Source: Gammaproteobacteria bacterium
Lineage (GTDB): Bacteria > Pseudomonadota > Gammaproteobacteria > Steroidobacterales > Foliamicaceae
NCBI GenBank assembly: GCA_009845905.1
Contig: VXYS01000009.1
Location: forward strand, 580,325 to 644,324
Direction: 5' to 3'
Length of the DNA stretch: 64,000 nt
Below, in pieces: positions 2,418-49,704 of this stretch (positions are counted from its first letter, which is position 1; every line of letters starts with the position of its first letter). The position numbers and the translations under genes were made by a program. Under the pieces are notes generated by a model, which saw only the letters and a program-made list of their open reading frames with translations, did no database searches and was not told where the DNA came from.

Positions 2418-2855
2418 ATGGCCCGCCGCCACGAGGTCATCGCGGACATCATCGCGGGTCAGACCGTGGGCAGCCAGGCGCAACTCGGCCGGCTGCTGGC
2501 GGAGCGCGGCATTCGCGTTACGCAGTCGTGCATCAGCCGTGACTTGTCTGTTATAGGCGCGGTCAAGCGGGGGCGCGCGTACTCCGTTGCGTCCTCCGAT
2601 ATTTCCGAGGGGGACCGGCAAACGCTTGCCACTTATGTGCGTGGCCTGGCCAACGCCGGACCCAACCTCGCGATCGTGCGCACAGCGACCGGGGCGGCCC
2701 AGCGGATAGCGCTGTTCCTCGATCGCTGCGGCTGGCCCGAGATCGTGGCAACCGTGGCCGGGGACGACACGATCTTCGTCGCCACCCGCAACCGGGACGA
2801 ACAGCAGGTATTGCTGGCGCGCCTGCGCCGCGAAATGGCCCCGGTTTCTTCCTGA
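2418..2855 (+). CDS. argR: Arginine repressor ArgR
   Basis: MARRHEVIADII...SQAQLGRLLAERGIRVTQSCISRDL is a winged-helix N-domain; the C-terminal GDDTIFVATR motif is typical of the ArgR oligomerisation/arginine-binding domain. An alternative in-frame ATG lies at 2397. Confidence 0.8.
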   Translation: MARRHEVIADIIAGQTVGSQAQLGRLLAERGIRVTQSCISRDLSVIGAVKRGRAYSVASSDISEGDRQTLATYVRGLANAGPNLAIVRTATGAAQRIALFLDRCGWPEIVATVAGDDTIFVATRNRDEQQVLLARLRREMAPVSS

Positions 2856-2880: not shown

Positions 2881-4107
2881 ATGAGCACATCTCCCATAGT
2901 GCTGGCCTATTCCGGCGGACTGGATACCTCGTTCTGCGTGCCCTGGCTGAGCGAGAAGTATCGGTGCCCGGTGGTCACGCTGACGGTCAATACCGGCGGC
3001 ATCGATTCCGGCCAGGCCGAATCGCTGGAGCGCCGAGCCCTGGCGTTGGGCGCCCGGCGGCATCTGCTGGTGGAGGCGCGCCCGCAGTTCTTCGATGAAG
3101 TGATCCGCCATCTCATTGCCGGCAACGTGCGGCGCGGGCACACGTATCCGCTGTGCGTGGGCGCCGAGCGGGGCGTGCAGGCGAAAATCCTGGCCCGCAC
3201 CGCGCAGGAGCTGGGCAGCGACACCGTGGCGCACGGCTGCACAGCCGCCGGCAACGACCAGTTCCGTTTTGAAATGGCCATGCGCGCGCTGGCGCCCGAA
3301 ATTACCGTGCTGGCGCCGGTGCGCGACGAGTCCTTCCAGCGCCGTGAGCAGGTCGCGTACCTGGCCGAGTGCGGCGCGCCGCAACTTCCGCAGGGCGGCG
3401 ATTACTCGATCAATCGGGGCCTGTGGGGCGTGACGATAGGCGGCCGCGAGACCCTGACTTCCGCGGGCTCCATCCCGGAAGAGGCCTGGGTGCTGTCAGC
3501 GGGTGCGCTGGAGGATCCGCGTCTCCCGGAGTCGCATGAACTGGAATTCGAGGTGGGGCTGCCGGTTGCCTGGGACGGCGAAGCCATGCAGCCCGTGGAG
3601 CTGATCGAGACGCTCGAAGCCGCCGGGAGCCGGTTCGGAATCGGCCGGGGCATCCACCTGGGCGACACGATTCTCGGCTCCAAGGGCCGGGTGGCCTACG
3701 AAGCTCCGGCCGCGGAGATACTCCTGTGCGCGCATCGCGAACTGGAAAAACTCACGCTGGGCGCGGGACAGATGCGGGTCAAGGACACGCTGGCGGCCGT
3801 CTACGGCGACCTGGTTCACGAGGGCAAGCAACTCGATCCGGTCTGCCGGGATATCGAGGCCTATTTCGACAGTTCGCAGGCGCGGGTATCGGGCCGCGTG
3901 CACCTGGCGCTGCAGCCGGGAGCCGTCTGGGTCCGCGGCGTCGAATCGCCCCATTCGCTGCTGGCCGCAAGCCGGGGCGTGTACGGGGAGAAGGCCGGGG
4001 AATGGTCTCCACGCGATGCGCTGGGCGCGGCCCGGGTCATGGCGCTGCCCGGCATGCTGCACAGTCGCGTGGGCGAATCGGCCGAAGGAGGTGGCAGCGA
4101 TGCGTAG
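2881..4107 (+). CDS. argG: Argininosuccinate synthase
   Basis: N-terminal AYSGGLDTS ATP-pyrophosphatase motif, 408 aa, arginine-operon context. Confidence 0.95.
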   Translation: MSTSPIVLAYSGGLDTSFCVPWLSEKYRCPVVTLTVNTGGIDSGQAESLERRALALGARRHLLVEARPQFFDEVIRHLIAGNVRRGHTYPLCVGAERGVQAKILARTAQELGSDTVAHGCTAAGNDQFRFEMAMRALAPEITVLAPVRDESFQRREQVAYLAECGAPQLPQGGDYSINRGLWGVTIGGRETLTSAGSIPEEAWVLSAGALEDPRLPESHELEFEVGLPVAWDGEAMQPVELIETLEAAGSRFGIGRGIHLGDTILGSKGRVAYEAPAAEILLCAHRELEKLTLGAGQMRVKDTLAAVYGDLVHEGKQLDPVCRDIEAYFDSSQARVSGRVHLALQPGAVWVRGVESPHSLLAASRGVYGEKAGEWSPRDALGAARVMALPGMLHSRVGESAEGGGSDA

Positions 4108-5161
4108 CGTAGTGATCGACAAGATGGCCTCGGTCGCCTCGGGCCTCGAACTGGGGCGCGAATTGCGCGTGGGCGAGAGCATTCCCAGCGAGGAAGGCGT
4201 GATCGTGGCCGTGGAAGTCCTGAACGACAAATCCTCGTATAACCGGCTGGAACTGGCCAGCGGCCGAATGGCGCGCGTGCGCAGCGGCGATATCGTGGTG
4301 GGCGCCCTGGGCCACCGCAAGGCCCTGTTCGGGTATTCCGGCCACCTGCCGGAGACCGTAAAGCGCGGCGACGTCCTGCAGTTGCTCAACATAGGCGGCG
4401 TCATAGGCGTGTGCGACTCCGTCAACGCCACGATGGGTTCGCCCTTCGACGTGCGCGTTCTGGGAGTGGTGCTGGAGTTCCCGTACCTGGGCCAACGGGT
4501 CGGCGTGCCCGCGCGGGTCGGTGGGCAGGCGCTGGATGGCGAGGGGCCGGGCGAACTCAACCTCGGGGGCGTTCCGGTCGTGGCCCTGGCCGGAACCTGC
4601 ATGAACTCGGGCAAGACCGCGGCAGCCTGTGCGATTATCGGCCGGCTGCGGCACGAGGGCTACGTGGTGGACGCCTTCAAGGCCACCGGCGTATCGCTGC
4701 GCCGCGACATCCTCGCGATGGAGGACGCCGGCGCGCGAAATACCGCGATCTTCACCGATTTCGGGATCGTCAGCACGGCTCCGGAGAACGCACCGACCCT
4801 GGTGCGTTCGATGCTGCGGCAGATGGCGGCGGCAGCGCCCGACGTGATCCTGTTCGAGTTGGGCGACGGCATACTGGGCGCCTATGGCGTGGAGGCCATC
4901 CTCGCCGACGACGGGATACGCTCGTCCATTTCCTGCCTGCTGCTGTGCGCCAGCGATCCCGTCGCCGCCTGGGGCGGGGCGCGGCTGCTCAAGGAGCTTT
5001 ACGGGATCGAGGTGGCCGCCGTTACAGGTCCGGCCACGGACAACCAGGTGGGACTGGACATCCTGGGGCAGCGGGTCGGCGTGCCGGGCTATAACGCGCT
5101 GACGCAAAGCGCGGAGCTCGGCGAGTTCGTGGCCCGCAACGTCTCGCTGGGGCGGTTATGA
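4100..5161 (+). CDS. Uncharacterised P-loop (SIMIBI/BioD/DUF1611-like) protein embedded in the arg operon
   Basis: ATG at 4100 preceded by ggaggtgg and overlapping the argG stop by 8 nt. Its stop overlaps the argC start (ATGA 5158-5161). Motif GTCMNSGKT (4592-4618) fits the G-T-x4-G-K-T loop. No arginine-enzyme family recognised. Confidence 0.75.
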   Translation: MRSVVIDKMASVASGLELGRELRVGESIPSEEGVIVAVEVLNDKSSYNRLELASGRMARVRSGDIVVGALGHRKALFGYSGHLPETVKRGDVLQLLNIGGVIGVCDSVNATMGSPFDVRVLGVVLEFPYLGQRVGVPARVGGQALDGEGPGELNLGGVPVVALAGTCMNSGKTAAACAIIGRLRHEGYVVDAFKATGVSLRRDILAMEDAGARNTAIFTDFGIVSTAPENAPTLVRSMLRQMAAAAPDVILFELGDGILGAYGVEAILADDGIRSSISCLLLCASDPVAAWGGARLLKELYGIEVAAVTGPATDNQVGLDILGQRVGVPGYNALTQSAELGEFVARNVSLGRL

Positions 5162-6207
5162 GCATTCCGGCCGTAATTCTGGGCGCTTCCGGGTACGTGG
5201 CGGGCGAACTGCTGCGCATCCTCGCCGGTCATCCGGATTTCCGTATCGCCGGGGCGATTTCCGAAAGCAACGCGGGCAAGGCGGTGGAATCCGTGTTTCC
5301 CAACCTCACGGGCATCTGGCCGGAGTTTCGGTTCCGGCCCTTCTCCGAGCTGGACGAGGTGCTTGGGGAGCGTTGCGCTGTTTTTTCCTGTGCTCCGCAT
5401 GGCGCAAGCGCGGGTCTGATCGCGGCAGCGCTGAAGGTGGCCGACGACCGGGGAGCCCGGGTCCGCATCGTCGATGCTTCGGCGGACTTTCGCTTCGCCG
5501 ACGCGGATGCGTACGAGCAGGTTTACGGCGCAGCACATGGCGCACCGGAACTGCTGCCTTCGTTCTCTTGCGCGTTACCGGAACACCGCCCGGAGGCCGC
5601 CACGCGGCATATCGGCCATCCCGGCTGTTTCGCCAGCGCATTGCTGCTGGCGTCGGTGCCCCTGATGCGCCACGGGCTCACCGCTACGCCCCTGTTCGCC
5701 AGCGGCGTTACCGGCAGCACGGGCGCCGGCAAACAACCTCTTCCGACCACTCATCATCCGGTCCGGCATTCCAATATGTTCGCCTACCGTCCGCTCAATC
5801 ACCGGCACGCGCCGGAGGTTGAGGCCGTGTGCGAGGCGGTGAGCGGCGTGCGGCCGGATCTGCGCTTCGTGCCGCACTCGGGGCCGTTCGCGCGCGGGAT
5901 CTACGTGACGATGCAGGCGGGGCTCAAGCAGTCCGTCAGCGCGGAGCGCATCAGGGAGGCGTTTGCGGATACCTATGCCGAGGCTCCTTTCGTGCACGTG
6001 ATCGACGGGCCGCCGAAGCTCAAGGACGTGGTTGGAGGCAACCATGCCCATATCGGGCTCACTGCGGACCAGGGTTCGGTGGCCGTCTTCGTGGTGCTGG
6101 ACAATCTCGTCAAGGGTGCGGCCGGCGGCGCCGTGCAATGGATGAATCGCCTGTACGGTCTTGAGGAGACCGCGGGCCTTGCGGCCGCGGGTCCGGCGTG
6201 GACGTGA
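5158..6207 (+). CDS. argC: N-acyl-gamma-glutamyl-phosphate reductase
   Basis: N-terminal ILGASGYVAGELLRIL Rossmann motif and catalytic-Cys motif GHPGCFASA; 349 aa. Confidence 0.95.
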   Translation: MSIPAVILGASGYVAGELLRILAGHPDFRIAGAISESNAGKAVESVFPNLTGIWPEFRFRPFSELDEVLGERCAVFSCAPHGASAGLIAAALKVADDRGARVRIVDASADFRFADADAYEQVYGAAHGAPELLPSFSCALPEHRPEAATRHIGHPGCFASALLLASVPLMRHGLTATPLFASGVTGSTGAGKQPLPTTHHPVRHSNMFAYRPLNHRHAPEVEAVCEAVSGVRPDLRFVPHSGPFARGIYVTMQAGLKQSVSAERIREAFADTYAEAPFVHVIDGPPKLKDVVGGNHAHIGLTADQGSVAVFVVLDNLVKGAAGGAVQWMNRLYGLEETAGLAAAGPAWT

Positions 6208-7409
6208 GCGTCGCGTCAGGGACGGCGGCCGCCGCCGATGTGCGCGGGGCCGAGGCTGCGCACCTGGCCCAGGTGTACGCGCAATTTCCGTTCGAGGTCG
6301 TGTCGGGCGACGGCGCTTACCTCAACTGCGCCGATGGCCGCCGCTTGCTGGACCTCTACGGCGGGCACGCGGTATGCGCCCTCGGCTACGGGCATCCGCG
6401 GCTGACGCAGGCCATCCGGCGGCAGGCCGGCGAACTGCTGTTCGCCAGCAACGCGGTGGCGTTGCGCGTGCGTGCGCGCGCGGCCGACAAGCTTGCGGAG
6501 TTCGCGCCGCCGGGGCTCGCTCGGGTTTTCTTCGTCAATTCGGGGGCGGAAGCCAACGAGAACGCTCTGCGCCTGGCCTGCAAGCTCACGGGACGCTCGC
6601 GCGTGGTCGCCCTGGAGCATGGTTTTCACGGCCGCACCGCGGCCGCCGGCGCGGTAACCTGGGGCGCGCGCGAGCGCTGGTACGGGTTTCCGGGAATGCC
6701 TTTCGACGTGGCCTTCGCACCCCGCGATAACGCCGCCGCCGCGACATCTCTCATCGATGAAGAAACCGCCGCCGTCATTCTCGAGCCCATACAGGGCCTC
6801 GCGGGCGCATTCGCCCTGAGCGACGAATTCCTGCGCGACGTGCGCGCCGCCTGCGACAGGCAAGGCGCGTTCCTGATCGCCGACGAGGTGCAGTGCGGTA
6901 TGGGTCGAAGCGGCCTGCCGTTCGCTATCTCGCACTCGGGCGTGGCGCCGGACATGATCACGGCCGCCAAGTCCCTGGGCGCGGGCTTTCCCTGCGCGGC
7001 GCTGCTGATGCGCGAGGATATCGCCGTCCAGCTCGGCGGCGGCGACCTGGGCACGACCTTCGGCGGCGGTCCGCTCGCCTGCGCGGCCATCGAGGCGGTG
7101 CTGGACGCGATGGAAGAGGAACAGCTTCCGGCGCAGGCCGCGGAGCGGGAGCGACAGATCCGCTCGACCTGCATTGCGGGCCCGGTCACGGCGATCGACG
7201 GGCGCGGGCTGCTGCTGGGCCTGAAATGCTCCGGCGGCGCGCGGCAGGTTCGTGACGACCTGCTTGCGGTGGACATTCTTACCGGGACCAGTGCGCTGCC
7301 CGAATGGCTGCGCCTGATGCCCCCGCTTAACCTGCGCGAACAAGAGGCGGCGCAACTGGCCGCCGCCGTGCATCAACTCGGCCCTCATCAGGAGCAGGCA
7401 AATGAGTGA
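6198..7409 (+). CDS. argD: Class-III aminotransferase (acetyl/succinyl-ornithine aminotransferase)
   Basis: LLDLYGGHAVCALGYGHP, FVNSGAEANE, DEVQCGMGRSG, and the PLP-lysine region ITAAKSLGAG. GTG start at 6198 overlaps the argC end. Confidence 0.9.
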   Translation: MDVSVASGTAAAADVRGAEAAHLAQVYAQFPFEVVSGDGAYLNCADGRRLLDLYGGHAVCALGYGHPRLTQAIRRQAGELLFASNAVALRVRARAADKLAEFAPPGLARVFFVNSGAEANENALRLACKLTGRSRVVALEHGFHGRTAAAGAVTWGARERWYGFPGMPFDVAFAPRDNAAAATSLIDEETAAVILEPIQGLAGAFALSDEFLRDVRAACDRQGAFLIADEVQCGMGRSGLPFAISHSGVAPDMITAAKSLGAGFPCAALLMREDIAVQLGGGDLGTTFGGGPLACAAIEAVLDAMEEEQLPAQAAERERQIRSTCIAGPVTAIDGRGLLLGLKCSGGARQVRDDLLAVDILTGTSALPEWLRLMPPLNLREQEAAQLAAAVHQLGPHQEQANE

Positions 7410-8418
7410 CATCCAACGATTCGACGACCTTGCGGACTTTTCGCCCGAGCAGATAGCGGCGCTTCTGGCCCTGGCCGGCCGGTTGGAAGAGCATCCGGAA
7501 CCGGAGGCCCTGAAAGGCAAGGTGCTGTCGCTGCTGTTTCTGAATCCATCGCTTCGAACGCTGGCTTCGTTTCAGGCTTCCATGACCCGCCTGGGCGGAG
7601 GCGCGTTCGTGATCTCGCCGGAAATGTCCATCCACGGGCTGGAGACGCGGCCCGGAATCGTGATGGACGGCGCCGCGGCCGAACACGTCAAGGAAGCGGT
7701 GCCGGTGATCGCCTCGTACGGCGACGCGCTGGGCCTGAGGGCGTTCGCCGAGCGCCGCGACCTGGTGGAGGACCTGGAAGACCGCGAGTACCGGAGCATG
7801 GCGGAGTTGGTTTCAACGCCCCTGATCAACATGGAATCGGCGATCAACCATCCCTGCCAGAGCCTGGCCGACTGGAAGACCATGGACGACCTGGGCGCCC
7901 CGGTTTCGGGGGGCAAGTTCGTCCTTAGCTGGGCCTACCATCCGCTGGCGCTTCCGCTTGCCGTGCCGGCGGCGACGATCCAGATGGCGGCCATGCGCGG
8001 AATGGACGTGACCGTGCTCCGCCCGGACGGGTTCGAGCTGCCGCCCCAGGTCATGGACAAGGCCCGTACGCTGGCCGGGCGTTCCGGGGGGTCGATCCGT
8101 GAAACGGACGACCGCTCCGAGGCGCTTGACGGCGCGCACGTCCTGTACGCCAAATCCTGGAGTTCGACGGTTCATTACGGCGACAAGCACGAGGACTACC
8201 AGTTGCGCAACCGGCACGAGGACTGGTGCGTCGACGAAGACTGGTTCGCGCCAGCCGATGAGGATTGCCGGTTCATGCACTGCCTGCCGGTGCGCCGCAA
8301 CGTGGTGGTGAGCGAGGCAGTGCTCGACGGGCCGCGCAGCGTAGTTGTGCCGGAAGCGCGCAATCGGATGTGGGTGCAGATGGCCGTGCTCTACGCGATG
8401 CTGGGGCCGGGACTGTGA
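7402..8418 (+). CDS. argF': N-acyl-L-ornithine carbamoyltransferase (AOTCase/SOTCase family)
   Basis: LFLNPSLRT carbamoyl-phosphate motif, HPCQSLAD and FMHCLPVRRN. Overall colinearity with the Xanthomonas/Bacteroides ArgF' type rather than classical OTC (recalled, not aligned). Confidence 0.85.
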   Translation: MSDIQRFDDLADFSPEQIAALLALAGRLEEHPEPEALKGKVLSLLFLNPSLRTLASFQASMTRLGGGAFVISPEMSIHGLETRPGIVMDGAAAEHVKEAVPVIASYGDALGLRAFAERRDLVEDLEDREYRSMAELVSTPLINMESAINHPCQSLADWKTMDDLGAPVSGGKFVLSWAYHPLALPLAVPAATIQMAAMRGMDVTVLRPDGFELPPQVMDKARTLAGRSGGSIRETDDRSEALDGAHVLYAKSWSSTVHYGDKHEDYQLRNRHEDWCVDEDWFAPADEDCRFMHCLPVRRNVVVSEAVLDGPRSVVVPEARNRMWVQMAVLYAMLGPGL

Positions 8419-9350
8419 ACCGCTCGCGTCCGAGCGGCACCGGCTTCGGGGCGCTGCGGGCCGCGGCGCCGTATCTGCGCTTGTACCGTGGCCGCGTTTT
8501 CGTCGTGAAGCTGGGTGGCGAGGTCTTGAGCCGCAGCAGCCGCATAGAAGCTCTGGTCGAGCAGGCCGGGGTCCTGCAGGCGCTGGGCGTGCGGGTGGTG
8601 ATCGTGCACGGCGGAGGACCGCAGTCGACCGAACTGACCGAGCGCCTGAAACACAAGGCGCGGATGGTGGCCGGCCGCCGCGTAACCGGGCCGGAAGACC
8701 TGAAGGTGGCCTCGTACGTGCTGAACGGCGAGGTCAACACGCAATTGCTCGCCGCCTGCCGGGCCTGCGGTATCCCCGCGGTCGGCCTGTCCGGGGTCGA
8801 CGCCGGCCTGGTGACGGCCCATCGCCGCCCGCCGGTGAAGATGGAAGACGCGGGCGACGAACCGGTGGATTTCGGCTTTGTGGGGGACATCGACGAAGTC
8901 GAGCCGGCGGTTCTGGATCTTGCCCTCGGGGAAGGCCTGATTCCGGTCGTAAGCCCGCTGTCGGCCGACGGCGAGGGCAATCTGCTGAATATCAATGCCG
9001 ACACCGTGGCCGCTTCGCTGGCGGTCGCCATCAAGGCGGAGAAACTGGTTCTCACGATGGCCGCGCCAGGCATACTCGAGGATCGCTCCGATCCGTCCAC
9101 GCTGTTGTCGTATATCGATCTCGCCGGATTGCGCAAGCTACGCGAACAGGGATCGCTGGGCGACGGCATGCTGCCCAAGGCCACGGCCATCGAATCCGCC
9201 ATCACGGGCGGTGTTCCGCGGGTTCACCTGGTGTCCGGGAGCACGCAGGACGCGTTGCTGCGCGAAGTATTCACCAACGAAGGATGCGGAACGCTGGTCG
9301 TGCGCAGCATCGATGCGCTCTCCGCGGCGGAGCAGGAGGCGGCGAAATAA
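8415..9350 (+). CDS. argB: N-acylglutamate kinase (kinase domain only, no fused GNAT)
   Basis: GTG at 8415 overlaps the argF' stop (GTGA). VFVVKLGGEVL amino-acid-kinase motif and VIVHGGGPQ. The ORF-track upstream extension to 8265 lies inside argF'. Confidence 0.9.
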   Translation: MNRSRPSGTGFGALRAAAPYLRLYRGRVFVVKLGGEVLSRSSRIEALVEQAGVLQALGVRVVIVHGGGPQSTELTERLKHKARMVAGRRVTGPEDLKVASYVLNGEVNTQLLAACRACGIPAVGLSGVDAGLVTAHRRPPVKMEDAGDEPVDFGFVGDIDEVEPAVLDLALGEGLIPVVSPLSADGEGNLLNINADTVAASLAVAIKAEKLVLTMAAPGILEDRSDPSTLLSYIDLAGLRKLREQGSLGDGMLPKATAIESAITGGVPRVHLVSGSTQDALLREVFTNEGCGTLVVRSIDALSAAEQEAAK

Positions 9351-10543
9351 TGACGCGCCTGTGGGACAAGGGCGGCAAGCTGGACGAAACGGTCCTGCGC
9401 TACACGGCCGGCGAGGACCACATCCTGGACGCGCGCCTGGTCGAGTACGACGTGAAGGCCTCGATCGCGCACGCCGGCATGTTGCACGCGGCAGGCTACC
9501 TGACGGAGGGGGATCACGCCGCGATCGTCGAAGGTCTGGGCGAACTTGCCGCCGGTCACGCGGCCGGGGCCTGGGCCATTTCGCTCGAAGAAGAAGACGT
9601 GCATACGGCCCTTGAGCGGCGCCTTGTAGCGCGGATCGGCGACGCCGGCGCCCGCGTGCACCTAGGACGTTCGCGCAACGACCAGGTGCTGGCGGCGTTG
9701 CGCCTGTATCTCAAGGACGCCGCTTCATCCCTGCGGAATGCCGCCGAAGAGGTTGCCACAGCGCTGGACGATCTCGGTGAGAGTCAGGGCGGTTTGCCGT
9801 TGCCCGGTTACACGCACATGCAGCAGGCCATGCCGAGCAGCGTGGCTCTGTGGGCGGGCGCCTATGCCTCGGAACTGCGCGACGACGCGGCCGGCCTTCG
9901 GTCCGCCGTGCGCCGACTGGACCGCAACCCGCTGGGCAGCGCCGCGGGCTTCGGCGCGCCCGGGCTGAAGCTCGATCGTGAACGCACCCGCAAGGCCCTT
10001 GGTTTTGCCGAAGTGCATGAGCCGGTCACGGCCGTGCAGCTGTCGCGCGGCAAGGCCGAAGCCGGGCTGGCGTTCGAATGCGCGCTTCTGGTCCAGGACC
10101 TGGGCCGGCTGTCGGGCGACCTCCTGTTGTTTTACACGCAGGAGTTTGCGCTCGTTGACCTGGCGCCGGAAGTGACCACCGGTTCGTCCATCATGCCCCA
10201 GAAGCGCAACGCCGACGCCCTGGAGCTGGTGCGCGCCGCCGGCGCCACCGCGCGCGCTTCACTGCTGGAAATCCTTGGCATACCTGCATCACTGCCCTCC
10301 GGTTATCAGCGCGACCTGCAGCGCATCAAGGCGCCACTTTTCCGCGTGGTCGATCTTGCCGGCGAAAGCTGCGAAGTCGTTTGCCGTATAGTGCGCGCTT
10401 TGCGCTTCAACCCGGAGCGTTGCGGGGAGCTGACGTCCGCCCGGGGTCTGCACGCCGCCGAGCGCGCCAACCGGCTGGCGGTCGAGCGGGGATTGAGTTT
10501 TCGCGAAGCGTACCGGCAGGTGGCGGAGCAGGAGAAAGAGTGA
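9350..10543 (+). CDS. argH: Argininosuccinate lyase (short, about 397 aa)
   Basis: ATG at 9350 overlaps the argB TAA. GYTHMQQAMP and the fumarate-lyase signature GSSIMPQKRNAD. The 732-aa ORF-track entry is an artefactual upstream extension. Confidence 0.9.
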   Translation: MTRLWDKGGKLDETVLRYTAGEDHILDARLVEYDVKASIAHAGMLHAAGYLTEGDHAAIVEGLGELAAGHAAGAWAISLEEEDVHTALERRLVARIGDAGARVHLGRSRNDQVLAALRLYLKDAASSLRNAAEEVATALDDLGESQGGLPLPGYTHMQQAMPSSVALWAGAYASELRDDAAGLRSAVRRLDRNPLGSAAGFGAPGLKLDRERTRKALGFAEVHEPVTAVQLSRGKAEAGLAFECALLVQDLGRLSGDLLLFYTQEFALVDLAPEVTTGSSIMPQKRNADALELVRAAGATARASLLEILGIPASLPSGYQRDLQRIKAPLFRVVDLAGESCEVVCRIVRALRFNPERCGELTSARGLHAAERANRLAVERGLSFREAYRQVAEQEKE

Positions 10544-10989
10544 GCGGCAGAATATGGCATCCCAGGGCGTTCGATCGTCCCGAGCAGCTCAACGCCCTGG
10601 AGAAGGACCGGATGCTGGGACATCTGGGCGTGGAGATTGTCGAGATCGGCGACGACTACCTGCGCGCCCGCATGCCCGTGGACTACCGCACCCAGCAGCC
10701 GTTCGGGTTGCTGCACGGCGGCGCCTCGGCGGTCCTGGCGGAATCGGTCGGAAGCTGGTCGTCCTACCTCACCATGCCTCCCGGCGAATACCAGGTCCTC
10801 GGCCTGGAAATAAACGTCAGCCACCTGCGCCCGGCGAGATCGGGTTACGTGTACGGCACCGCCCGCCCGGTGCGGCTCGGCAGCGTGGTCCACGTCTGGG
10901 ACATACGGATCACCGACGAAGCGGAAGTTTTGCTGAGCATTTCCAGACTGGCGACCTCCGTTCGCCGGCTGAAGCGGCCGAACGCGTGA
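10540..10989 (+). CDS. PaaI/YbdB-type hotdog thioesterase, last gene of the arg operon
   Basis: GTG at 10540 overlaps the argH stop (GTGA). LGVEIVEIGDDYLRARMPV...LLHGGASAVLAES is typical of PaaI-family thioesterases. An alternative ATG lies at 10612. Confidence 0.7.
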   Translation: MSGRIWHPRAFDRPEQLNALEKDRMLGHLGVEIVEIGDDYLRARMPVDYRTQQPFGLLHGGASAVLAESVGSWSSYLTMPPGEYQVLGLEINVSHLRPARSGYVYGTARPVRLGSVVHVWDIRITDEAEVLLSISRLATSVRRLKRPNA

Positions 10990-19372: not shown

Positions 19373-21475
19373 GTGACACGCCAGTATCGGCAGTACGCTC
19401 TGCCATGGCTGCTTGCGCTTGCCCAATGCCTGCTGCTGCCGGCCGTCCATGCCCAGGCAAGCGAAGGCGCAAGCGCCGATCTTGAAGAAATCGTGGTGAC
19501 CGCGCGGCGGCGCCCCAGCGATGCGCAACGCGTGGGCCGCAGCCTCAGCGTTCTGGACCTTGAGAGCCTCGGAGGACTGCCCGGACAGACGCACGTGCAG
19601 GAGGCGCTGGTGCGGGTGCCGGGCGTGAACCTGCAGCGGGGCAACGGACAGGAGTACCTGCCGGCGCTGCGGTCGCCGGTGCTCACGGGGGCCGGCGCCT
19701 GCGGCGCGCTGCTCACGGCAGAGGACGGCATTCCGCTGACCTCGCCGGGCTTTTGCAACATCAACGAACTTTTCTTCGCCCACCACGAGGCGGCTTCGCG
19801 CATAGAGGTGCTGCGCGGGCCGGGAACGGCCGTGCACGGAGGCAATGCGCTGCACGGTGTCGTGAACGTCATCACCGCGCGCAGCGCAGGGTCTTCGCTT
19901 GCCGGCCTGGAGTTGGGGTCGTACGGTCTGGCGCGATTCCGGCTGAACCGGTTCGGCGAGTCGGACAGCGGCCTCAGGTTGACCGCGGTGCGCGACGGCG
20001 GTTTTCGCGACGATGCCGGTTACCGGCAGTTCAAGCTCAACGCCTTTCGCTCAGGGAACCGGCGAGCCTGGGACTGGACCGGCGGCCTGGCCGTGAGCGG
20101 GCTGGACCAGGACACCGCGGGGTACATCACCGGACTCGACAGCTATCGCGACCGGCAAACCGCCCGCTCGAATCCGGACCCCGAAGCGTTCCGCAAGGCG
20201 CTCAATCTGCGCGCCTGGGCACGCCTTCAATATCGGAGAAGTGAAGCCTGGTCGCTGGTGCTGACGCCGTACCTGCGCTACTCGCGCATGCGCTTTCGGA
20301 TGCATTTCCTGCCCGGCGACCCGTTCGAGCGCAACGGCCATTCGGGCGCCGGCCTGCAGACGGCCGCCTATATCGACCGACCAGCCTGGCGCCTCATTGC
20401 CGGTCTGGATTTCGAGTACGCGCGGGGCGATCTGCGCCAGTGGCAGGAGGGCGACGCCGCCGGCAGCGCATTCGTGCGGGCGGTCTTCCCCTCCGGGGAC
20501 CACTACGACTACGAGGTGGACGCCGGCTGGCTGGCCCCGTTTGCGCAGCTTGATCTGCGTCTCGGAAGCGATTGGACCGCGAGTTTCGGAGCGCGTTACG
20601 AACGTGCGCGTTACGACTACCGCACCATGCTGCCCGCGGGACGCACGCGGGACGATCTGACTCCCTGCGGATTCGGAGGTTGCCGCTACAGTCGCCCGGC
20701 CGACCGCTCCGACAGCTTCGGGACGTTCTCGCCCAAGGCGAGCATCATCTGGAGCCCTTCAGGCAGCGCACGCGTCTGGCTCAGTTTCTCGCACGGCTTT
20801 CGCATGCCCCAGGCCACCGAGCTGTACCGCCTGCAGGGTGCGCAGGCCACGGCCGATTTGCGCCCGGAACAGCTTCGGGCGGCGGAACTGGGCGCGTCCT
20901 TCCGGCTCGAAGCCTTTGCCGCGCAGGTGGCGCTGTACCACATGCGCAAGCGGGACGTCCTTTTCCGGGACGCCGAGCTGTTCAATCGCGCGGGCGGCGG
21001 CACTCGACACGAGGGGTTCGAGATCGACGTGTCCTGGCGGGTGATATCCCGACTGACGGTGGAATTAACCGGCAGCGTTGCCCGGCACCGTTACGACAGG
21101 GATTACCTGCTCGGGGGCGTCAATCTGGACGGCCTCGAAGTGGACACCGCGCCCCGTCGGGTCGGCGGGACGCGCCTTCGCTGGAGGGGCGAGGCCGACT
21201 GGCAGATGGAACTGGAGTGGCTTTGGACTTCAGGCTACTTCATGGAGCCCCAAAACCGGCATCGCTATCCGGGTCATGAAATCCTGAACCTGCGCGCGCG
21301 CGCGGCGCTCGGGCCGCGGGTCATCGTTTATCTGCGACTGCTCAACCTGACCGGCCGGGCATACGCGGACCGCGCCGACTATACGGTCTTCAGCGGCGAG
21401 CGCTATTTCCCGGGACGGCCCCGGTCCCTGTTTGCCGGGCTGGAATGGCGCTGGGGCGCGTCCTCCTCCAACTAG
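19373..21475 (+). CDS. TonB-dependent receptor
   Basis: Signal peptide ...LLLPAVHAQA, plug-domain start LEEIVVTARR, beta-barrel-type alternating sequence. Starts 4 nt after the ACAD stop. Confidence 0.85.
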   Translation: MTRQYRQYALPWLLALAQCLLLPAVHAQASEGASADLEEIVVTARRRPSDAQRVGRSLSVLDLESLGGLPGQTHVQEALVRVPGVNLQRGNGQEYLPALRSPVLTGAGACGALLTAEDGIPLTSPGFCNINELFFAHHEAASRIEVLRGPGTAVHGGNALHGVVNVITARSAGSSLAGLELGSYGLARFRLNRFGESDSGLRLTAVRDGGFRDDAGYRQFKLNAFRSGNRRAWDWTGGLAVSGLDQDTAGYITGLDSYRDRQTARSNPDPEAFRKALNLRAWARLQYRRSEAWSLVLTPYLRYSRMRFRMHFLPGDPFERNGHSGAGLQTAAYIDRPAWRLIAGLDFEYARGDLRQWQEGDAAGSAFVRAVFPSGDHYDYEVDAGWLAPFAQLDLRLGSDWTASFGARYERARYDYRTMLPAGRTRDDLTPCGFGGCRYSRPADRSDSFGTFSPKASIIWSPSGSARVWLSFSHGFRMPQATELYRLQGAQATADLRPEQLRAAELGASFRLEAFAAQVALYHMRKRDVLFRDAELFNRAGGGTRHEGFEIDVSWRVISRLTVELTGSVARHRYDRDYLLGGVNLDGLEVDTAPRRVGGTRLRWRGEADWQMELEWLWTSGYFMEPQNRHRYPGHEILNLRARAALGPRVIVYLRLLNLTGRAYADRADYTVFSGERYFPGRPRSLFAGLEWRWGASSSN

Positions 21476-28097: not shown

Positions 28098-30902
28098 ATG
28101 AAAGCAACGCGTAGCCGAATTCTTGCACTGTCCGTCGCAATTGGAGTGGGGGTGCTGACTGCGCTACCCGCGACGCCACAGGACGATACAGCCTTTGAGG
28201 AAATCGTCGTCACCACGCGGAAGAAGGAGGAAAACCTTCAGGACATTCCGATCGCGGTGAGCGCCTTGAGCCGCGCGGACATGGAGCGGGCCGGCGTGAA
28301 GGAGCTGAACGAGATCGCCCATCACGTTTCCAGCCTGCAGTTCGACAGGGGCTATTCGCCGGCCGACACGCGCCTGGTGATCCGGGGTCTGGCGCCCACG
28401 CGAGGGCGTCCCAACGCTGCGACACTCGTCGATGGCATCGATATTTCGAGCGAGGCCATCGGTGTTGCCGGCGGCACGATGCTGGTTAACCCACGCATGC
28501 TTGATATCGAGCGCGTCGAAGTCGTGAAGGGCCCGCAAAGCGCCCTTTTCGGACGAAGCGCTTTCGCCGGCGCGGTGCAGTACGTCACGCGCGATCCGTC
28601 GGATGAAACCGAAGGCGAGTTTGCTCTCGACGGGGCCGAGGAAGGCTATTACACGTTCAAGGGCAGCCTTTCCGGACCGCTGGGAGAAAGGGCCGGCTAC
28701 CGTCTGAACGCCATGTACTGGGAAGAGGGCGGCTTCTACCAGAACTCCATTACCGGCAACGACATCGGCGGCGGCGAAGGATTGGGTCTTGCCGTCACGT
28801 TGAAGTTCGAACCCAACGACTCGTCCAGCTACAAGATGCGGGTGGAGTACTCCGACGACGAGTTCGAGCCGATGCCGCAGGCCAATATTCCTTTTAACGG
28901 CATCAATCGCGTGCCGGCCGCCGCTTCTCTGTGCAACGGCGGCTACGTCAATGATGACGATTGCGACGGCCCCGCCAAGATCATTCAGGATCACCTGTTG
29001 CGCACCCGCGCGGGAGACCCCAACGATCCCGCGGTGTTCGACGACATGGACCATCCCGGCGTGATCGGCGAAATTCCGGATGGCGATGAACTCGTGGTCA
29101 CATTGACGCCGGACTACCGCCAGGGCATCGGCAACGACGATTTCCCCGGAGCGACGCGCGAAGTGCTTCGGTTCTCGCTGATTGCGGATTGGACAGTAGG
29201 ACAGGGCACCCTGAGTTCGCTCACCGGCGTGGCGGATGCCGACTCCGGCGCCCAAATGGACCTGGACAAGATAGCCGAGGCCGGACCGAACGGAATGGAC
29301 ACCAGCATCGCCAGTCAGATCGGCCATCGTTGGTCCAATACTTCGCTCCTGAGCCAGGAGTTGCGCTACGTATCGGAGTTTGAAGGGCGCTTCAATTTCA
29401 CGCTTGGCGCCCAGTTGTGGCAGGAGGACGTGGAACAGAACGACCGTAACAACACCATCATTACCGGCGGCACCTACTGCAGCCTGCTGCGCATCAAGCC
29501 CGGCCCGTTTGCTCCCGCATTCACGATCGATACGTTCGGCGGGAATCCGCGATTCGGAATCCCCCCCAATCCCGCCCGTAATACCTGCAAATACAGCAGT
29601 TTTCCCAGTGCGCTGATCACCCAACAGGTCTATAACCAAACGCTGGTGAACACTGTGCACCGCGATACGGACCATCGTTCCGTTTATCTGGCAATTGATT
29701 TTGACCTGACGGAGAGGCTTTCCGCACACGCCGAAGCGCGCTGGACCGATGAAACGACGGACGTGACCGCGCCCAATACCTTCAATCCCGCGGCGCGGCG
29801 CGCAGAGGGTCCGGGGTCGCTGCAGGCCTGTGGGAGTTCCGGCAACTGCATTCCGGGCGTGTCCTGGGGCCCTTATCCGCCCAATGGTTTCGGCACTCCC
29901 GGCAATTTCGCCACTCCCATATCCTTCACACGCAGCGATAGCTATGTCACGCCCAAGTTGAGTCTGCAATGGGACCAGTCGGACGACACGATGTGGTACT
30001 TCTCCTGGGCCGTGGCCAAGAAGCCGGGTGGTTTCAGCACGCTGGGGTTCGGCGGATTCGGTGGAGACGCCAACGGTAACGGCGAACCCGACGAGATCGA
30101 GTTCGAACCCGAGGAAATGCAGGTCTGGGAAGTGGGCATGAAGCGCACGATGCTGGACGGGCGTTTACGCTTTAACGGCGCCTACTTCTTCCAGGACTTT
30201 ACCGACAAGCAGATCAGCATCCAGAGAGTGATTCGCGGTCAGTTGGGCACGGTGATCAGCAATGCCAGCGGCGCCGAAGTGCACGGCGTGGAACTGGATG
30301 CGACCTGGCTGATCACCGACAACTGGAGGCTTTCCGGCGGCTATACCTGGCTGAACGGGGAGTTCACCGATTACAAGGTAATTACCACGAGTTCGGCGGA
30401 CCCCGCCCGCATCGGCAACTGCAACCCGGTTATGGCCGGCGGTCGCGCTGTGTGCGAGGTCGACCGATCCGGCTTCGACCTGGAGCGCACGCCGGATCAC
30501 GCCTGGCAGTTCACGCTGTCGTATCAGGCGCCTTCCAGGATCCGGCAGGGATGGGACACCTTCGCGTCATTCAGCGCGCTCTACCAGAGCGAGCGGTACA
30601 TCGAGGATTACAACAGGAAGATCCTCAAGTCGTACTGGCGCGCCAACCTGAATTTCGGTCTGGCTACCGACGAGTGGGAATTTGCCGTTTACGTGAAGAA
30701 CGTTTTCGACGACGACACGATCACGTGGGCCGGCGGTGGCCCGGGCATGCCGGTCAGCGACTGGCGGTTTGCGCTTCTGGTGGACACGACAGGACTCGGA
30801 GCTCCGTTCACGATTCTGCCTGCGCCGCGGATTGCTTCAACCGTGTATGGCCACCTGCCGGATCCGCGCCAGATCGGCATACGCCTGAACTGGCGCTTCT
30901 AG
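28098..30902 (+). CDS. TonB-dependent receptor, 934 aa (tandem paralog 1)
   Basis: Signal peptide, plug start FEEIVVTTRKKEENLQDIPIAV, C-terminal IGIRLNWRF with terminal Phe. Confidence 0.9.
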   Translation: MKATRSRILALSVAIGVGVLTALPATPQDDTAFEEIVVTTRKKEENLQDIPIAVSALSRADMERAGVKELNEIAHHVSSLQFDRGYSPADTRLVIRGLAPTRGRPNAATLVDGIDISSEAIGVAGGTMLVNPRMLDIERVEVVKGPQSALFGRSAFAGAVQYVTRDPSDETEGEFALDGAEEGYYTFKGSLSGPLGERAGYRLNAMYWEEGGFYQNSITGNDIGGGEGLGLAVTLKFEPNDSSSYKMRVEYSDDEFEPMPQANIPFNGINRVPAAASLCNGGYVNDDDCDGPAKIIQDHLLRTRAGDPNDPAVFDDMDHPGVIGEIPDGDELVVTLTPDYRQGIGNDDFPGATREVLRFSLIADWTVGQGTLSSLTGVADADSGAQMDLDKIAEAGPNGMDTSIASQIGHRWSNTSLLSQELRYVSEFEGRFNFTLGAQLWQEDVEQNDRNNTIITGGTYCSLLRIKPGPFAPAFTIDTFGGNPRFGIPPNPARNTCKYSSFPSALITQQVYNQTLVNTVHRDTDHRSVYLAIDFDLTERLSAHAEARWTDETTDVTAPNTFNPAARRAEGPGSLQACGSSGNCIPGVSWGPYPPNGFGTPGNFATPISFTRSDSYVTPKLSLQWDQSDDTMWYFSWAVAKKPGGFSTLGFGGFGGDANGNGEPDEIEFEPEEMQVWEVGMKRTMLDGRLRFNGAYFFQDFTDKQISIQRVIRGQLGTVISNASGAEVHGVELDATWLITDNWRLSGGYTWLNGEFTDYKVITTSSADPARIGNCNPVMAGGRAVCEVDRSGFDLERTPDHAWQFTLSYQAPSRIRQGWDTFASFSALYQSERYIEDYNRKILKSYWRANLNFGLATDEWEFAVYVKNVFDDDTITWAGGGPGMPVSDWRFALLVDTTGLGAPFTILPAPRIASTVYGHLPDPRQIGIRLNWRF

Positions 30903-31064
30903 GGTACGCCGGCAAAATTTCTCAGGGGAGGGACGACTGCCCGCTGCTACTTGAGAGCTGGCTCTCTCTGGTGACGGCGCGCTCCAGTTCGGGTAGTCTT
31001 GGCGCGCGGATTCAATTTCCCTGCACCAGGGGAACAACATACGACCTTTGAAGGGGGGTTGGTT

Positions 31065-41655: not shown

Positions 41656-43104
41656 CTACCATTTCCATATCCTGTCTCCCAGCAAACGCCCAAAAGTGAT
41701 TGCCGACATTAGTCCCATACCACCACAAAACGACTTTCCTGACGTGGCGCCCAGACCGAGGCACTCCCCGGCTGCATAGACCCCTGGAATAACAGAGCCA
41801 TCTTCTCGGATCAACTCGAGGTTTTCATTGACAGCCAAGCCGGCGAAACTGGTCAGTGACATACCATGGTGCTTGATGCCATAGAACGGTGGACAGGCAA
41901 TAGGCGCCGGCAAGTACTTGCGTCCAAAATCTTCATCCACACCTTTCCCCACGGAACGGTTATAGCGTTCGACAGTCTCCACAAGCCCAGCGGGATCCAC
42001 GCCCATTGCTTCAGCCAGTTCTTCCGGCGAATCAGCTTTCCGAAACGACTCATGATCGTTGTAAAGTGCATCCGCCTCTTCATGGGTCATGTTGGCATAG
42101 ATGCACTTGGACTCTTCGCGGGCGCGCTGATCGAAAACCACCCAGAACGTCAGATCCGGAATCTCGAGAAGGGCGTGTTCCTTCACATCGGCGCTGTCAG
42201 AATCCTCAGCCACAAAGCGCTCACCGTCCCGGTTGACGAAGATTTCCCACAAGGGCCGCGTACCCAATAGTGATGCCGCATGAATCAGTGTCACATTCGA
42301 CACGTACGACGTATCCTTCGGGTCCTTGACACGGCCGAAAGTCGGCATGAAGAAATCCTTGTATCGAACATACCCACCAATTTTTTCGCCAACCGCATGG
42401 CCCTTGCCATTTGCGTTCGGGTGGGAACCTAGAACCGGACCGCCTTTGAACAACGGGTACCCGTTGGAGTACTTGGGAAAGACATCTGCGTTGGAGTTGT
42501 ATCCACCCATGGACAATAGAACATTGGGTGCGGAGACTGTTTTCTCCTGTTCGTCTTTCGACTTGAGTTCGACCCCGGTAACCCGGCCTTCGTCCTGCCG
42601 CACCAGATCCATGACATCTGTTTCGAGCAAGAGGGTGATGCCACCGGCATGCACTTCTTTCATGAATTCAGTTCCAAGGACCTTCTGCAGCGGTCTGCCA
42701 CCACGATCAGGTCCCCAGTATGTTCGCGCAATCCTGTAGGGCTCATGCCCCTTGAAGATCACCGGCATCTCCGGCAACAACTCCAGACCGTTGTCAAGCA
42801 ACCAGTGCAATGTATCGGCGGCATTGTCCACCGCCATACGAGTCAGAGTCGGGTCGGCCGTGTTGTGAGATATGCGCATAATGTCTTCATAGTGAAGATC
42901 CGGTGTATCGTGTATGCCGCGCACGGCCTGAAGGCGCGTGCCGGCGGCACTCATCTGTCCTGTTGAACGCTGAGTGTTGCCACCGATTTCGGCGGCCGAA
43001 TCAACCGCGAGCACACGGGCGCCGCGCTTCGAGGCGAAGGTCGCCGCGGTTTGCCCGGCTGTACCGACACCACAGATGATCACATCGTAGTCAAATGGTC
43101 CCAT
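41656..43104 (-). CDS. FAD-dependent oxidoreductase (fumarate reductase/KstD flavoprotein family)
   Basis: N-terminal DVIICGVGTAGQTAA dinucleotide fold and C-terminal GVYAAGECLG motif typical of FAD_binding_2 enzymes. Confidence 0.85.
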   Translation of the reverse strand: MGPFDYDVIICGVGTAGQTAATFASKRGARVLAVDSAAEIGGNTQRSTGQMSAAGTRLQAVRGIHDTPDLHYEDIMRISHNTADPTLTRMAVDNAADTLHWLLDNGLELLPEMPVIFKGHEPYRIARTYWGPDRGGRPLQKVLGTEFMKEVHAGGITLLLETDVMDLVRQDEGRVTGVELKSKDEQEKTVSAPNVLLSMGGYNSNADVFPKYSNGYPLFKGGPVLGSHPNANGKGHAVGEKIGGYVRYKDFFMPTFGRVKDPKDTSYVSNVTLIHAASLLGTRPLWEIFVNRDGERFVAEDSDSADVKEHALLEIPDLTFWVVFDQRAREESKCIYANMTHEEADALYNDHESFRKADSPEELAEAMGVDPAGLVETVERYNRSVGKGVDEDFGRKYLPAPIACPPFYGIKHHGMSLTSFAGLAVNENLELIREDGSVIPGVYAAGECLGLGATSGKSFCGGMGLMSAITFGRLLGDRIWKW

Positions 43105-43184
43105 TAGCTCTCAATCGATCTGGCGCTGGACTATGGCAGCGATGACCAGGCCGCCCGCTATCCGCGGATTCCTGGTTCTCTCTT

Positions 43185-45074: not shown

Positions 45075-45400
45075 GGCACCTCCGATTGATTCAATAACTC
45101 GAACCACTCCAATCTCTTCAATGCGGCGTCAACTACGCCACCACGTTAATTTCGTGAAATCCTTTGTGCGCGGCGAAACAACCACCTCCCGCTCGATGCG
45201 ACTCGCCATTGGCATCGGCCAAATCATAGACCAAAACGTTTGCGCCAGCCTGAAACTCGACACGTAGAGCGATAACCCGTACGCTCGACGGCTTGTGCGA
45301 GAGACACGTACCGAGTTACGCGACCTGTTCGCAGATTTTGGTGCTGTCGCCAGTCAATAGGGACGCTACTACCCCTTCCGCGATACATTGAGAGCCAGGC

Positions 45401-46816: not shown

Positions 46817-46818
46817 AA

Positions 46819-47814: not shown

Positions 47815-47870
47815 CCCTCTGTAACTTCTGCAACCGGCGCTGATTGCCAAAGACCTTAGGGGTAAAAACC

Positions 47871-49682: not shown

Positions 49683-49704
49683 ATTCGCAACGGACGCGAC
49701 TGCG

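Follow-up and report, generated by a model that had tools for sequence, protein, structure and literature searches.

A conserved P-loop protein in an arginine operon of Gammaproteobacteria, a predicted N-acylglutamate synthase

Arginine biosynthesis is among the best-studied pathways. Its first enzyme is nevertheless apparently missing in a large group of Gammaproteobacteria that takes in the Steroidobacteraceae, sponge-associated lineages and many soil and sediment metagenome assemblies; some contigs labelled Gemmatimonadota apparently go without it too. The locus described here raises the question of which protein opens the pathway in such an organism. It lies in the window, which is the whole stretch of 64 kb of DNA that was analysed, and consists of an arginine operon with one unnamed gene (gene X, encoding protein X) inserted between argG and argC. 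Protein X is predicted, with about an even chance of being right, to be the missing first enzyme, a functional replacement of ArgA that makes N-succinyl-L-glutamate by acylating L-glutamate at its alpha-amino group. The idea is already known and no priority is claimed: in the accessible part of a preprint (GapMind 2026) the Steroidobacter protein ACG33_RS14135 is put forward as an alternative ArgA, as a prediction only.

An arginine operon with an unnamed gene

The genes of the operon and the translation signal of gene X are as follows.

2418..2855, + strand: argR, arginine repressor, first gene of the cluster, starting at ATG 2418 (TIGR01529, E 7.5e-29, under the curated cut-off)
2881..4107, + strand: argG, argininosuccinate synthase (TIGR00032, 282 bits against a cut-off of 268)
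4087..4094, + strand: Shine-Dalgarno sequence GGAGGTGG of gene X, 5 nt before ATG 4100 and within the end of argG (read from the sequence)
4100..5161, + strand: gene X, unnamed, 353 aa, predicted N-acylglutamate synthase
5158..6207, + strand: argC, with its start in the shared ATGA (TIGR01850, 296 bits against a cut-off of 234)
6198..7409, + strand: argD-type acyl-ornithine aminotransferase (closest in NCBIfam are models of acetylornithine/succinylornithine transaminase, E 1e-94, under their cut-offs)
7402..8418, + strand: argF', N-acylornithine carbamoyltransferase (NF003384, 340 bits against a cut-off of 288)
8415..9350, + strand: argB, N-acylglutamate kinase, kinase domain only, GTG start (TIGR00761, 202 bits against a cut-off of 151)
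9350..10543, + strand: argH, argininosuccinate lyase, short form of about 397 aa (TIGR00838, 306 bits against a cut-off of 280)
10540..10989, + strand: hotdog-fold (4HBT) thioesterase, probable GTG start (Pfam 4HBT, E 5e-13)

The whole arginine operon is translationally coupled. As read from the sequence, the ATG of gene X (4100-4102) lies ahead of the argG stop codon TAG (4105-4107), which gives an overlap of 8 nt, and its TGA (5159-5161) has the letters ATGA in common with the argC start codon (ATG, 5158-5160). Further downstream, argC and argD overlap by 10 nt and argD and argF' by 8 nt, and start and stop codons are shared by argF' and argB (GTGA), argB and argH (TAATG), and argH and the thioesterase gene (GTGA). 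In most related loci argR stands upstream of the cluster; the thioesterase gene follows argH only in the loci of the nine closest relatives. The match of argH to TIGR00838 spans positions 11-387 of the 455 in the profile, and the same short end is found in related loci.

A preliminary description of this DNA had listed the 353-aa reading frame, its Shine-Dalgarno sequence, the 8-nt overlap with argG, the ATGA shared with argC and the motif GTCMNSGKT, and all of these were read again from the sequence; the later motifs that it had pointed to, 'KATGVS...FTDFG' and ELGDG (residues 253-257), are present in protein X as well. A longer reading frame of gene X from ATG 4016 was rejected. All homologues begin with M-R/K-S/T-V/I at the position matching 4100, which is therefore the real start of the gene.

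The family of protein X comprises more than 7,000 proteins at 90% clustering, all of them unnamed or called 'hypothetical'. Complete chromosomes with a member include OZ220729.1, OY762933.1 and OZ220471.1. Mean column identity among 33 homologues, down to 65% identity, is 76%. Judged by these more than 7,000 homologous clusters and by this degree of conservation, gene X is not a chance reading frame. Searches of Pfam and NCBIfam with protein X gave no family at threshold, and a single-sequence search of the PDB sequences gave nothing significant.

Gene X adjoins argC within an arginine operon in all 80 genome loci examined. The context is kept in distant relatives of 32-47% identity (P0124, P0186 and P0204). 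Some clusters are reduced, to argR-X-argC-argD-argB in nine loci and to X-argC-argB in six, X standing for this gene, and the arrangement X-argC-argD-argB also occurs; they keep gene X together with argB and argC while argF', argG and argH sit elsewhere. One protein (P0223), encoded on four contigs from three samples, is a clean full-length fusion of protein X with ArgB, and is a genuine fusion of one lineage. P0178 and P0274, which look like fusions to ArgC, were set aside because their assemblies are frameshifted and error-prone.

Absent activities and the predicted acyl group

The survey for argA, argJ and argE took in the 64-kb window and, for each related locus, about 17 kb, and the earlier statement that the operon is devoid of all three held up. 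Queries with E. coli ArgE, AstE, AstA and the GNAT domain of ArgA (tblastn) gave no match in the window and the 80 loci, 1.27 Mb in total, and none of the 30 other reading frames of the window was ArgA-, ArgJ- or ArgE-like in a Pfam scan. Where E. coli ArgA did find matches in the searched loci, it did so through its kinase domain only; ArgB is free of a GNAT extension, with at most 21 residues after the kinase domain in all loci. Protein X itself has no Pfam Acetyltransf match and differs from GNAT in fold. Nor did it yield an M20 or AstE/AspA-type fold in Foldseek, a corresponding match in Pfam or NCBIfam, or any similarity to ArgE or AstE.

In clusters of the Xanthomonas type, argE is found at about the position of gene X. 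This placement, together with the lack of an ArgE in the operon and its neighbourhood, favours a deacylase that would act as ArgE and convert N-succinylcitrulline to citrulline, an option that had been raised before. It is now disfavoured and considered extremely unlikely, since gene X stays with argB, argC and argD where argF', argG and argH are located elsewhere, protein X occurs fused to ArgB and has no metallohydrolase or amidohydrolase fold, and the family anti-correlates with ArgA according to the accessible part of the preprint (GapMind 2026). Clustering of flanking reading frames for a candidate deacylase brought up an alpha/beta-hydrolase-like frame divergent from argR in 23 loci and the thioesterase in nine. 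These are the only recurrent extra genes, and neither is convincing as the deacylase.

Another way to account for both gaps would be a recycling transferase resembling ArgJ, which would take the succinyl group off N-succinylcitrulline or N-succinylornithine, hand it to glutamate and so fill the places of ArgA and ArgE. It would fit with an operon that has only one conserved unexplained gene, with the lack of any ArgE or AstE homologue in the 80 loci and the window, and with Steroidobacter denitrificans, which, in the part of the preprint at hand, grows on minimal medium without ArgA and in which ArgE is also unrecognisable (GapMind 2026). Such a transferase is very unlikely, however: a P-loop nucleotide-binding domain would have no obvious role in a simple transacylation, gene X persists in clusters without argF', and the same part of the preprint names plausible argE candidates beside some homologues.

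Action of protein X at the first step is the best-supported placement. It draws on the retention of gene X with argB and argC in reduced clusters, the fusion to ArgB, the lack of a nearby ArgA GNAT domain, ArgE or AstE, and an alanine in ArgF'. Because the lineage is also without a recognisable ArgE, the assignment to ArgA and not to ArgE rests on the genomic context, the ArgB fusion and the anti-correlation with ArgA given in the preprint, where, as far as its accessible part goes, homologues of ACG33_RS14135 and ArgA never occur in one genome (GapMind 2026). Protein X is tied to ACG33_RS14135 through Steroidobacteraceae homologues that are 65-66% identical to protein X and have the same context. 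Going by what could be seen of the preprint, both are unnamed proteins within an argR-argG-argC-argD-argF'-argB-argH cluster, both have an ArgF' with a small residue at position 92, and both are remotely related to DgcN through the P-loop.

The alanine in question, Ala93 of ArgF' (nt 7678-7680), takes the position of Glu92 in the Xanthomonas N-acetylornithine carbamoyltransferase (AOTCase). The best PDB sequence match of ArgF' is 3l02, which has Ala at this residue, as against Glu in the wild-type 3kzc, and Ala is present at the E92 position in each of the 57 neighbouring ArgF' proteins of related loci. The exchanges E92A/P/S/V switch AOTCase to succinylornithine (Shi et al. 2007, as cited in the accessible part of the preprint). 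Because ArgF' has Ala at the E92 position, its predicted specificity is for N-succinylornithine, and the acyl group is probably succinyl and not acetyl. Of the earlier suggestion of a non-orthologous glutamate N-acyltransferase, the transferase is retained as the best-supported prediction, one that the preprint reaches independently for the Steroidobacter relative; the acetyl group gives way to a probable succinyl group.

Fold and conserved residues of protein X

The AlphaFold2 model of protein X (pLDDT 95.8) consists of two domains. These and the principal motifs are listed below.

4100..4564, + strand: N-terminal domain, residues 1-155, all-beta with eleven strands in each of the two models (pLDDT 94-96)
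4574..5158, + strand: C-terminal BioD-like (SIMIBI class) P-loop domain, residues 159-353 (Foldseek, profile search, hhalign)
4592..4618, + strand: Walker A or P-loop motif GTCMNSGKT, residues 165-173, aligned to GTDTEVGKT of BioD
4679..4681, + strand: Lys194 (FKATGVS), invariant in 56 of 56 relatives, aligned to Lys37 of BioD ('YKPV' / 'CKPV' motif)
4856..4870, + strand: Walker B-like motif ELGDG, residues 253-257, with E253 and G255 invariant, aligned to E115-G-A-G-G of BioD

The N-terminal domain alone had no fold match in the PDB by Foldseek (best E 1.4), the solved DUF1611 proteins included. S11, Y47, E51, D64, R73 and D91 are conserved in it throughout the family, and close relatives also share the motif GALGHRKALFGYSGH. 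In the P-loop, G171 and K172 never vary, and 55 of 56 diverse relatives have T173. K172, K194, E253, D286, R73 and E51 show no variation, or almost none, among the 56 relatives, which reach down to 28% identity. This pattern suggests an enzyme-like conservation of protein X.

For the C-terminal domain, BioD came first in Foldseek (E 1e-6), followed by SRP GTPases and HypB, with the MeaB/ArgK-like 3nxs also among the matches. A profile search against the PDB sequences had M. tuberculosis BioD at the top (E 2.4e-4), and no family other than BioD came near significance; the hhalign comparison with E. coli BioD gave E 6.6e-5 with a probability of 64% over about 100 residues. With the BioD/CobQ/CobB branch of SIMIBI proteins the domain has in common the GTxxxxGKT P-loop, the Lys after strand 2 (K194, equivalent to K37) and the Walker B Glu (E253, equivalent to E115). 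In contrast to protein X, BioD is a single-domain protein; identity between the two is 14-18%, and the context of protein X is arginine synthesis, not that of biotin or cobalamin. Protein X reaches none of the curated models for BioD, CobQ, CbiA and AAA_26; E values were 0.003-0.014 for MobB, 0.18 for CobQ and 0.19 for CobB.

A likeness to DUF1611, proposed earlier from motifs, did not amount to membership: the Pfam threshold of DUF1611 is missed and BioD is closer in Foldseek. The motifs GT-x4-GKT and E-x-G-x-G are real; they are not specific to DUF1611, being common to the BioD-like SIMIBI branch and aligning equally well to BioD. The window protein has no match to Pfam DUF1611 (PF07755) even at E<=1, and none to DUF1611_N (PF17396). 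Among 56 diverse relatives, sub-threshold matches to DUF1611 were seen in 30 (best E 1.3e-5), compared with 34 for MobB and 30 for CbiA; the one of P0220 covers the P-loop segment only. The DUF1611 structure 2obn ranks 39th in Foldseek (E 2.2e-4, TM 0.38, 14% identity), after BioD, SRP GTPases and HypB; 7XRJ is not among the best 50 Foldseek matches of protein X, and the profile search against PDB sequences gave no DUF1611 structure at E<=10. No DUF1611 gene was found in the window and the related loci. For the Steroidobacter protein, the accessible part of the preprint gives a Foldseek E of 1.4e-7 against DgcN (7XRJ, D-glutamate N-acetyltransferase) (GapMind 2026). DUF1611 is only a fold-level relative of protein X, no closer than BioD, MobB and CbiA; the structural similarity is one of the superfamily and lacks specificity.

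DgcN and protein X are both two-domain proteins and have a BioD-like P-loop C-terminal domain with GT-x4-GKT; N-acylation of glutamate is an activity of DgcN and for protein X a predicted one. The architecture is not common to both, however, as the N-terminal domain of protein X is all-beta and has no PDB match. The predicted substrate of protein X is moreover L-glutamate, not D-glutamate, the predicted acyl group succinyl, not acetyl, and the predicted role biosynthetic, not catabolic.

The Foldseek matches to HypB, to the MeaB/ArgK-like 3nxs and to SRP GTPases, and weak Pfam matches to MobB, are also in line with a non-catalytic or accessory NTPase comparable with the SIMIBI G-proteins HypB, MeaB and UreG, which would serve ArgB and ArgC as regulator, scaffold or chaperone. 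This is highly improbable. The early arginine enzymes need no assembly of a metal centre, the NKxD motif of guanine specificity was not seen in alignments of the relatives, the N-terminal domain is conserved as strongly as an enzyme active site, and the gap at the first step would stay unfilled.

Predicted reaction and wider family

For protein X as N-acylglutamate synthase, we infer the following reaction, with its acyl donor and the parts played by single residues. By analogy with DgcN, the C-terminal P-loop domain would bind succinyl-CoA by its nucleotide-diphosphate part, and the N-terminal beta domain and the cleft between the domains (with the conserved R73, E51, S11 and Y47) would hold glutamate in place to attack the thioester. 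Acylation of its alpha-amino group would turn L-glutamate into N-succinyl-L-glutamate, which ArgB would then phosphorylate, ArgC reduce and ArgD transaminate, before ArgF' carbamoylates N-succinylornithine. In E. coli, ArgB, ArgC and ArgD take acetylated intermediates.

The step predicted for protein X is that of classical ArgA and ArgA/B, and the fusion in P0223 parallels the pairing of kinase and transferase in them. Unlike them, protein X has no GNAT domain and no similarity in sequence or fold, and its acyl group is probably succinyl. No characterised enzyme is known to carry out this step with such a fold. If the prediction is true, it would be a third unrelated solution for the synthesis of N-acylglutamate, beside GNAT-type ArgA and ArgJ, and arginine auxotrophy would be wrongly predicted from the genomes of these organisms. 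Since this large and highly conserved family has no entry in Pfam, an established function would annotate thousands of genes. With respect to the preprint, the window adds a confirmation of the idea and three observations beyond what its accessible part mentions for ACG33_RS14135: protein X has a relative fused to ArgB, its N-terminal domain is an orphan fold, and BioD is its closer match.

The kinship with BioD bears on a different chemistry for the same step. Protein X might be an ATP-dependent succinate:L-glutamate ligase (N-succinylglutamate synthetase), whose P-loop domain, in the manner of BioD, CobQ and CobB, would phosphorylate a carboxylate and so make succinyl phosphate; the alpha-amine of glutamate would attack it, with release of ADP and phosphate, and succinate freed later by a desuccinylase would be reused. 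BioD is the best match both in structure (E 1e-6) and by profile (E 2.4e-4; hhalign E 6.6e-5). The Walker A Lys and Thr, K194 and E253, the last two equivalent to K37 and E115 of BioD, are invariant or nearly so, and these counterparts of BioD catalytic residues would suit ATP chemistry at least as well as the binding of CoA. In two distant relatives the neighbouring gene encodes a RimK-type ATP-grasp glutamate ligase, with translational coupling in one case, which places the wider family among ATP-driven glutamate-ligating systems. Against this, every characterised N-acylglutamate synthase uses acyl-CoA, DgcN, the one BioD-like enzyme known to N-acylate glutamate, reportedly uses acetyl-CoA, and conservation of the P-loop by itself fits ATP and the ADP part of CoA equally. 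The ligase is a tentative alternative and on the whole unlikely. Doubtful too is the broader claim that protein X founds a new class of enzyme, an ATP-dependent succinate:glutamate ligase that would combine a BioD-like phosphoryl-transfer domain with a beta domain without known structural relative. If that were true, succinate from desuccinylation might be recaptured, and the RimK-coupled relatives and a homologue on a fungal-looking contig would carry out related, uncharted N-acylations of glutamate.

Beside the RimK-linked distant homologue no LysW-like carrier peptide was found, a 42-aa reading frame there having no such features. The RimK-coupled remote relatives are located on archaea-like contigs, and the homologue on the fungal-looking contig stands alone.

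The X gene and the arginine operon

Gene X, encoding a 353-aa protein, lies in an operon of the order argR, argG, X, argC, an argD-type aminotransferase gene, argF' (N-acylornithine carbamoyltransferase), argB and argH. From argG onward, start and stop overlap at every junction.

2418-2855: argR, first gene of the cluster
4087-4094, plus strand: Shine-Dalgarno sequence GGAGGTGG, 5 nt before the ATG of X
4100-5161, plus strand: X, ATG at 4100, TGA at 5159-5161, 353 aa
9350-10543: argH, short ArgH

Re-reading of the sequence bore out the preliminary description of this ORF, including its coordinates, Shine-Dalgarno sequence, 8-nt overlap with the argG stop (TAG 4105-4107), ATGA shared by its stop and the argC start, and motif GTCMNSGKT (residues 165-173; ELGDG occupies residues 253-257). 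A longer frame opens at 4016; the true start is 4100, because all homologues begin at the matching position. The argB gene encodes a kinase domain only, and the operon lacks argA, argJ and argE, as had been noted.

In 80 related loci from species-representative genomes, X is always directly upstream of argC. Most have the form argR-argG-X-argC-argD-argF'-argB-argH; nine are reduced to argR-X-argC-argD-argB and six to X-argC-argB (four labelled Steroidobacteraceae). More remote relatives are arranged as argR-X-argC-argD-argF'-argB (47% identity), X-argC-argD-argB (35%) and argG-X-carbamoyltransferase (32%). Thus X travels with the N-acylated-glutamate steps, not with argF', argG or argH. In one lineage (four contigs, three samples) a complete X is cleanly fused to the ArgB kinase domain.

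8001-9881 of locus L094 (also L095, L096): X-ArgB fusion, stand-alone gene, divergent from an arginase-family gene

The start called in L094 is too far downstream; the ORF runs about 45 codons further upstream to a Met. Two apparent X-ArgC fusions were dropped, as the assemblies are frameshifted. ArgB carries no acetyltransferase extension in the related loci, and E. coli ArgE, AstE, AstA and the ArgA acetyltransferase domain found no match in the window and the 80 loci.

Loci of the form argR-X-argC-argD-argB (L010, L011, L014-L017 versus L012, L013, L018) are nearly identical, and their X shares about 75% identity with the window protein. Their labels differ by assembly, Longimicrobiales or Gemmatimonadetes versus Gammaproteobacteria, a sign either of conflicting binning or taxonomy or of a recent horizontal transfer.

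Fold and family of X

No Pfam or NCBIfam model matched X over threshold (top MobB, E 0.003-0.014), nor did the single sequence match any PDB sequence. At 90% identity the homologues fall into over 7,000 clusters, each either without a name or labelled 'hypothetical'; at 50% identity (E<=0.001) there are 1,382. Mean column identity was 76% over 33 homologues (down to 65% identity). An AlphaFold2 model from an alignment of 56 diverse relatives is very confident (pLDDT 95.8, pTM 0.92) and has two domains.

Residues 1-155: N-terminal domain, eleven beta strands
Residues 159-353: C-terminal SIMIBI-class P-loop domain

Modelled by itself, the N-terminal domain reached pLDDT 93.7, and Foldseek found no PDB fold for it (best E 1.4). 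For the C-terminal domain, the top Foldseek match was dethiobiotin synthetase (BioD; E 1e-6), followed by SRP GTPases and HypB. The family profile matched BioD among PDB sequences (E 2.4e-4), and hhalign against E. coli BioD (E 6.6e-5, probability 64%) paired the two P-loops, K194 with BioD K37 and E253 with BioD E115. X had been likened to DUF1611. The motif resemblance is real, and the family assignment is wrong: weak Pfam matches among the 56 relatives are spread evenly over MobB (34), CbiA (30) and DUF1611 (30), and the motif therefore marks the BioD-like branch generally. DUF1611 (2obn) ranked 39th in Foldseek (E 2e-4) and was absent at E<=10 from the profile search of PDB sequences; X falls short of DUF1611 membership in score and in domain architecture.

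Distant homologues occur beside RimK-type ATP-grasp ligases (L086-L088, 7132-9092; L082, 267-2378), outside any arginine cluster and with no LysW-like peptide nearby. One (29% identity), on low-GC contigs with archaeal-looking neighbouring genes, has a 4-nt overlap with its ligase gene; identity of the other is 36%. This placement suggests a second, uncharacterised function of the wider family. A stand-alone homologue of 32% identity (L100, 8001-9056; GCA_009193465.1, contig ML742132.1) lies near genes for Zn-cluster/Fungal_trans transcription factors, an EF3-like protein, pectinesterase and citrate synthase. As this contig looks fungal, the range of the family appears to include eukaryotes.

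Acyl group and predicted function

The window ArgF' most resembles Xanthomonas N-acetylornithine carbamoyltransferase, with Ala in place of Glu92. Its top PDB match, 3l02, also has Ala at residue 92 (Glu in wild-type 3kzc), as do all ArgF' of the related loci (57/57). Replacement of Glu92 by A, P, S or V confers N-succinylornithine specificity (Shi et al. 2007, cited in 10.1101/2024.10.14.618325); this residue therefore makes succinylated intermediates probable in the pathway.

Synthesis of N-succinyl-L-glutamate, which would feed ArgB, is the best-supported function of X. The glutamate N-acyltransferase proposed in the preliminary description remains the main line, supported by operon context, the ArgB fusion, the missing ArgA domain and a published prediction. 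According to section 11 and Appendix 2 of the GapMind 2026 preprint (10.1101/2024.10.14.618325), Steroidobacter denitrificans grows on minimal medium without ArgA or ArgE, and its arginine cluster includes a hypothetical protein, ACG33_RS14135, predicted as an alternative ArgA. Homologues are reported there to lie virtually always in arginine operons and never to co-occur with ArgA homologues; A, P, S or V stands at position 92 in 90% of neighbouring ArgF', and ACG33_RS14135 itself is remotely similar in Foldseek to DgcN (7XRJ, E 1.4e-7), a D-glutamate N-acetyltransferase. X is tied to ACG33_RS14135 through Steroidobacteraceae family members, to which it is 65-66% identical in like context. 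The idea is already public as a prediction; what novelty is left lies in the chemistry question, the orphan N-terminal fold, the ArgB fusion and the non-arginine branches of the family.

Succinyl-CoA is given an even chance of being the donor, because of the DgcN precedent and because every ArgA known to us is acyl-CoA-dependent. That X is instead an ATP-driven ligase of succinate, acting through an acyl phosphate, is rather improbable on these same grounds; in its favour are the closer match to BioD, the invariance in the family of the residues that correspond to the catalytic Lys and Glu of BioD, and the two RimK-adjoining relatives, one translationally coupled. Smaller weight is given to an ArgJ-like succinyl-recycling transferase, to the deacylase also proposed earlier, and to an accessory NTPase.

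No conserved desuccinylase candidate was found near the X cluster. In 23/80 loci a conserved ORF resembling phospholipase/carboxylesterase-type alpha/beta hydrolases (motif ...WLHGLGADGHDF...) lies about 2.3-2.6 kb upstream of X, oriented divergently to argR (e.g. L021 1519-2313, minus strand); as a possible desuccinylase it is speculative, and the window lacks it.

Other features of the window

10540-10989: hotdog-fold (4HBT) thioesterase gene after argH, probable GTGA start/stop overlap
About 42000-60400: lower-GC region, 18 kb, GC 55-57% versus 62-68%
60406-60481, minus strand: tRNA-Phe, end of the lower-GC region

ArgH of this lineage (window and L001-L080) is about 390-397 aa long. The match to TIGR00838 spans positions 11-387 of 455 and that to E. 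coli ArgH residues 15-394 of 457, which leaves about 65 residues missing at the C-terminus; the ORF end is identical in nearly all related loci. In contrast, a 456-aa lyase gene lies near the 47%-identity relative of X. The thioesterase gene appears to close the operon, an arrangement confined to the nine closest relatives (L001-L009).

The lower-GC region resembles a metabolic island of acquired origin and carries genes for an FAD oxidoreductase, three alpha/beta-hydrolase proteins of 586-640 aa (two hydrolase domains in at least one), a quinone-oxidoreductase-like protein, an Opp/Dpp-type ABC transporter, a PhyH dioxygenase and an acyl-CoA synthetase; a scan of the ten largest ORFs showed no integrase. 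Three TonB-dependent receptor genes (28098-33869 and 19373-21475) are located further downstream than the arginine operon, accompanied by an OPT oligopeptide transporter, MFS transporters and a sodium:alanine symporter. Relatives closest to the window come from metagenome bins named SB, COS, CAR and RHO, which we take to be sponge metagenome bins; these names point to a sponge-associated gammaproteobacterium.
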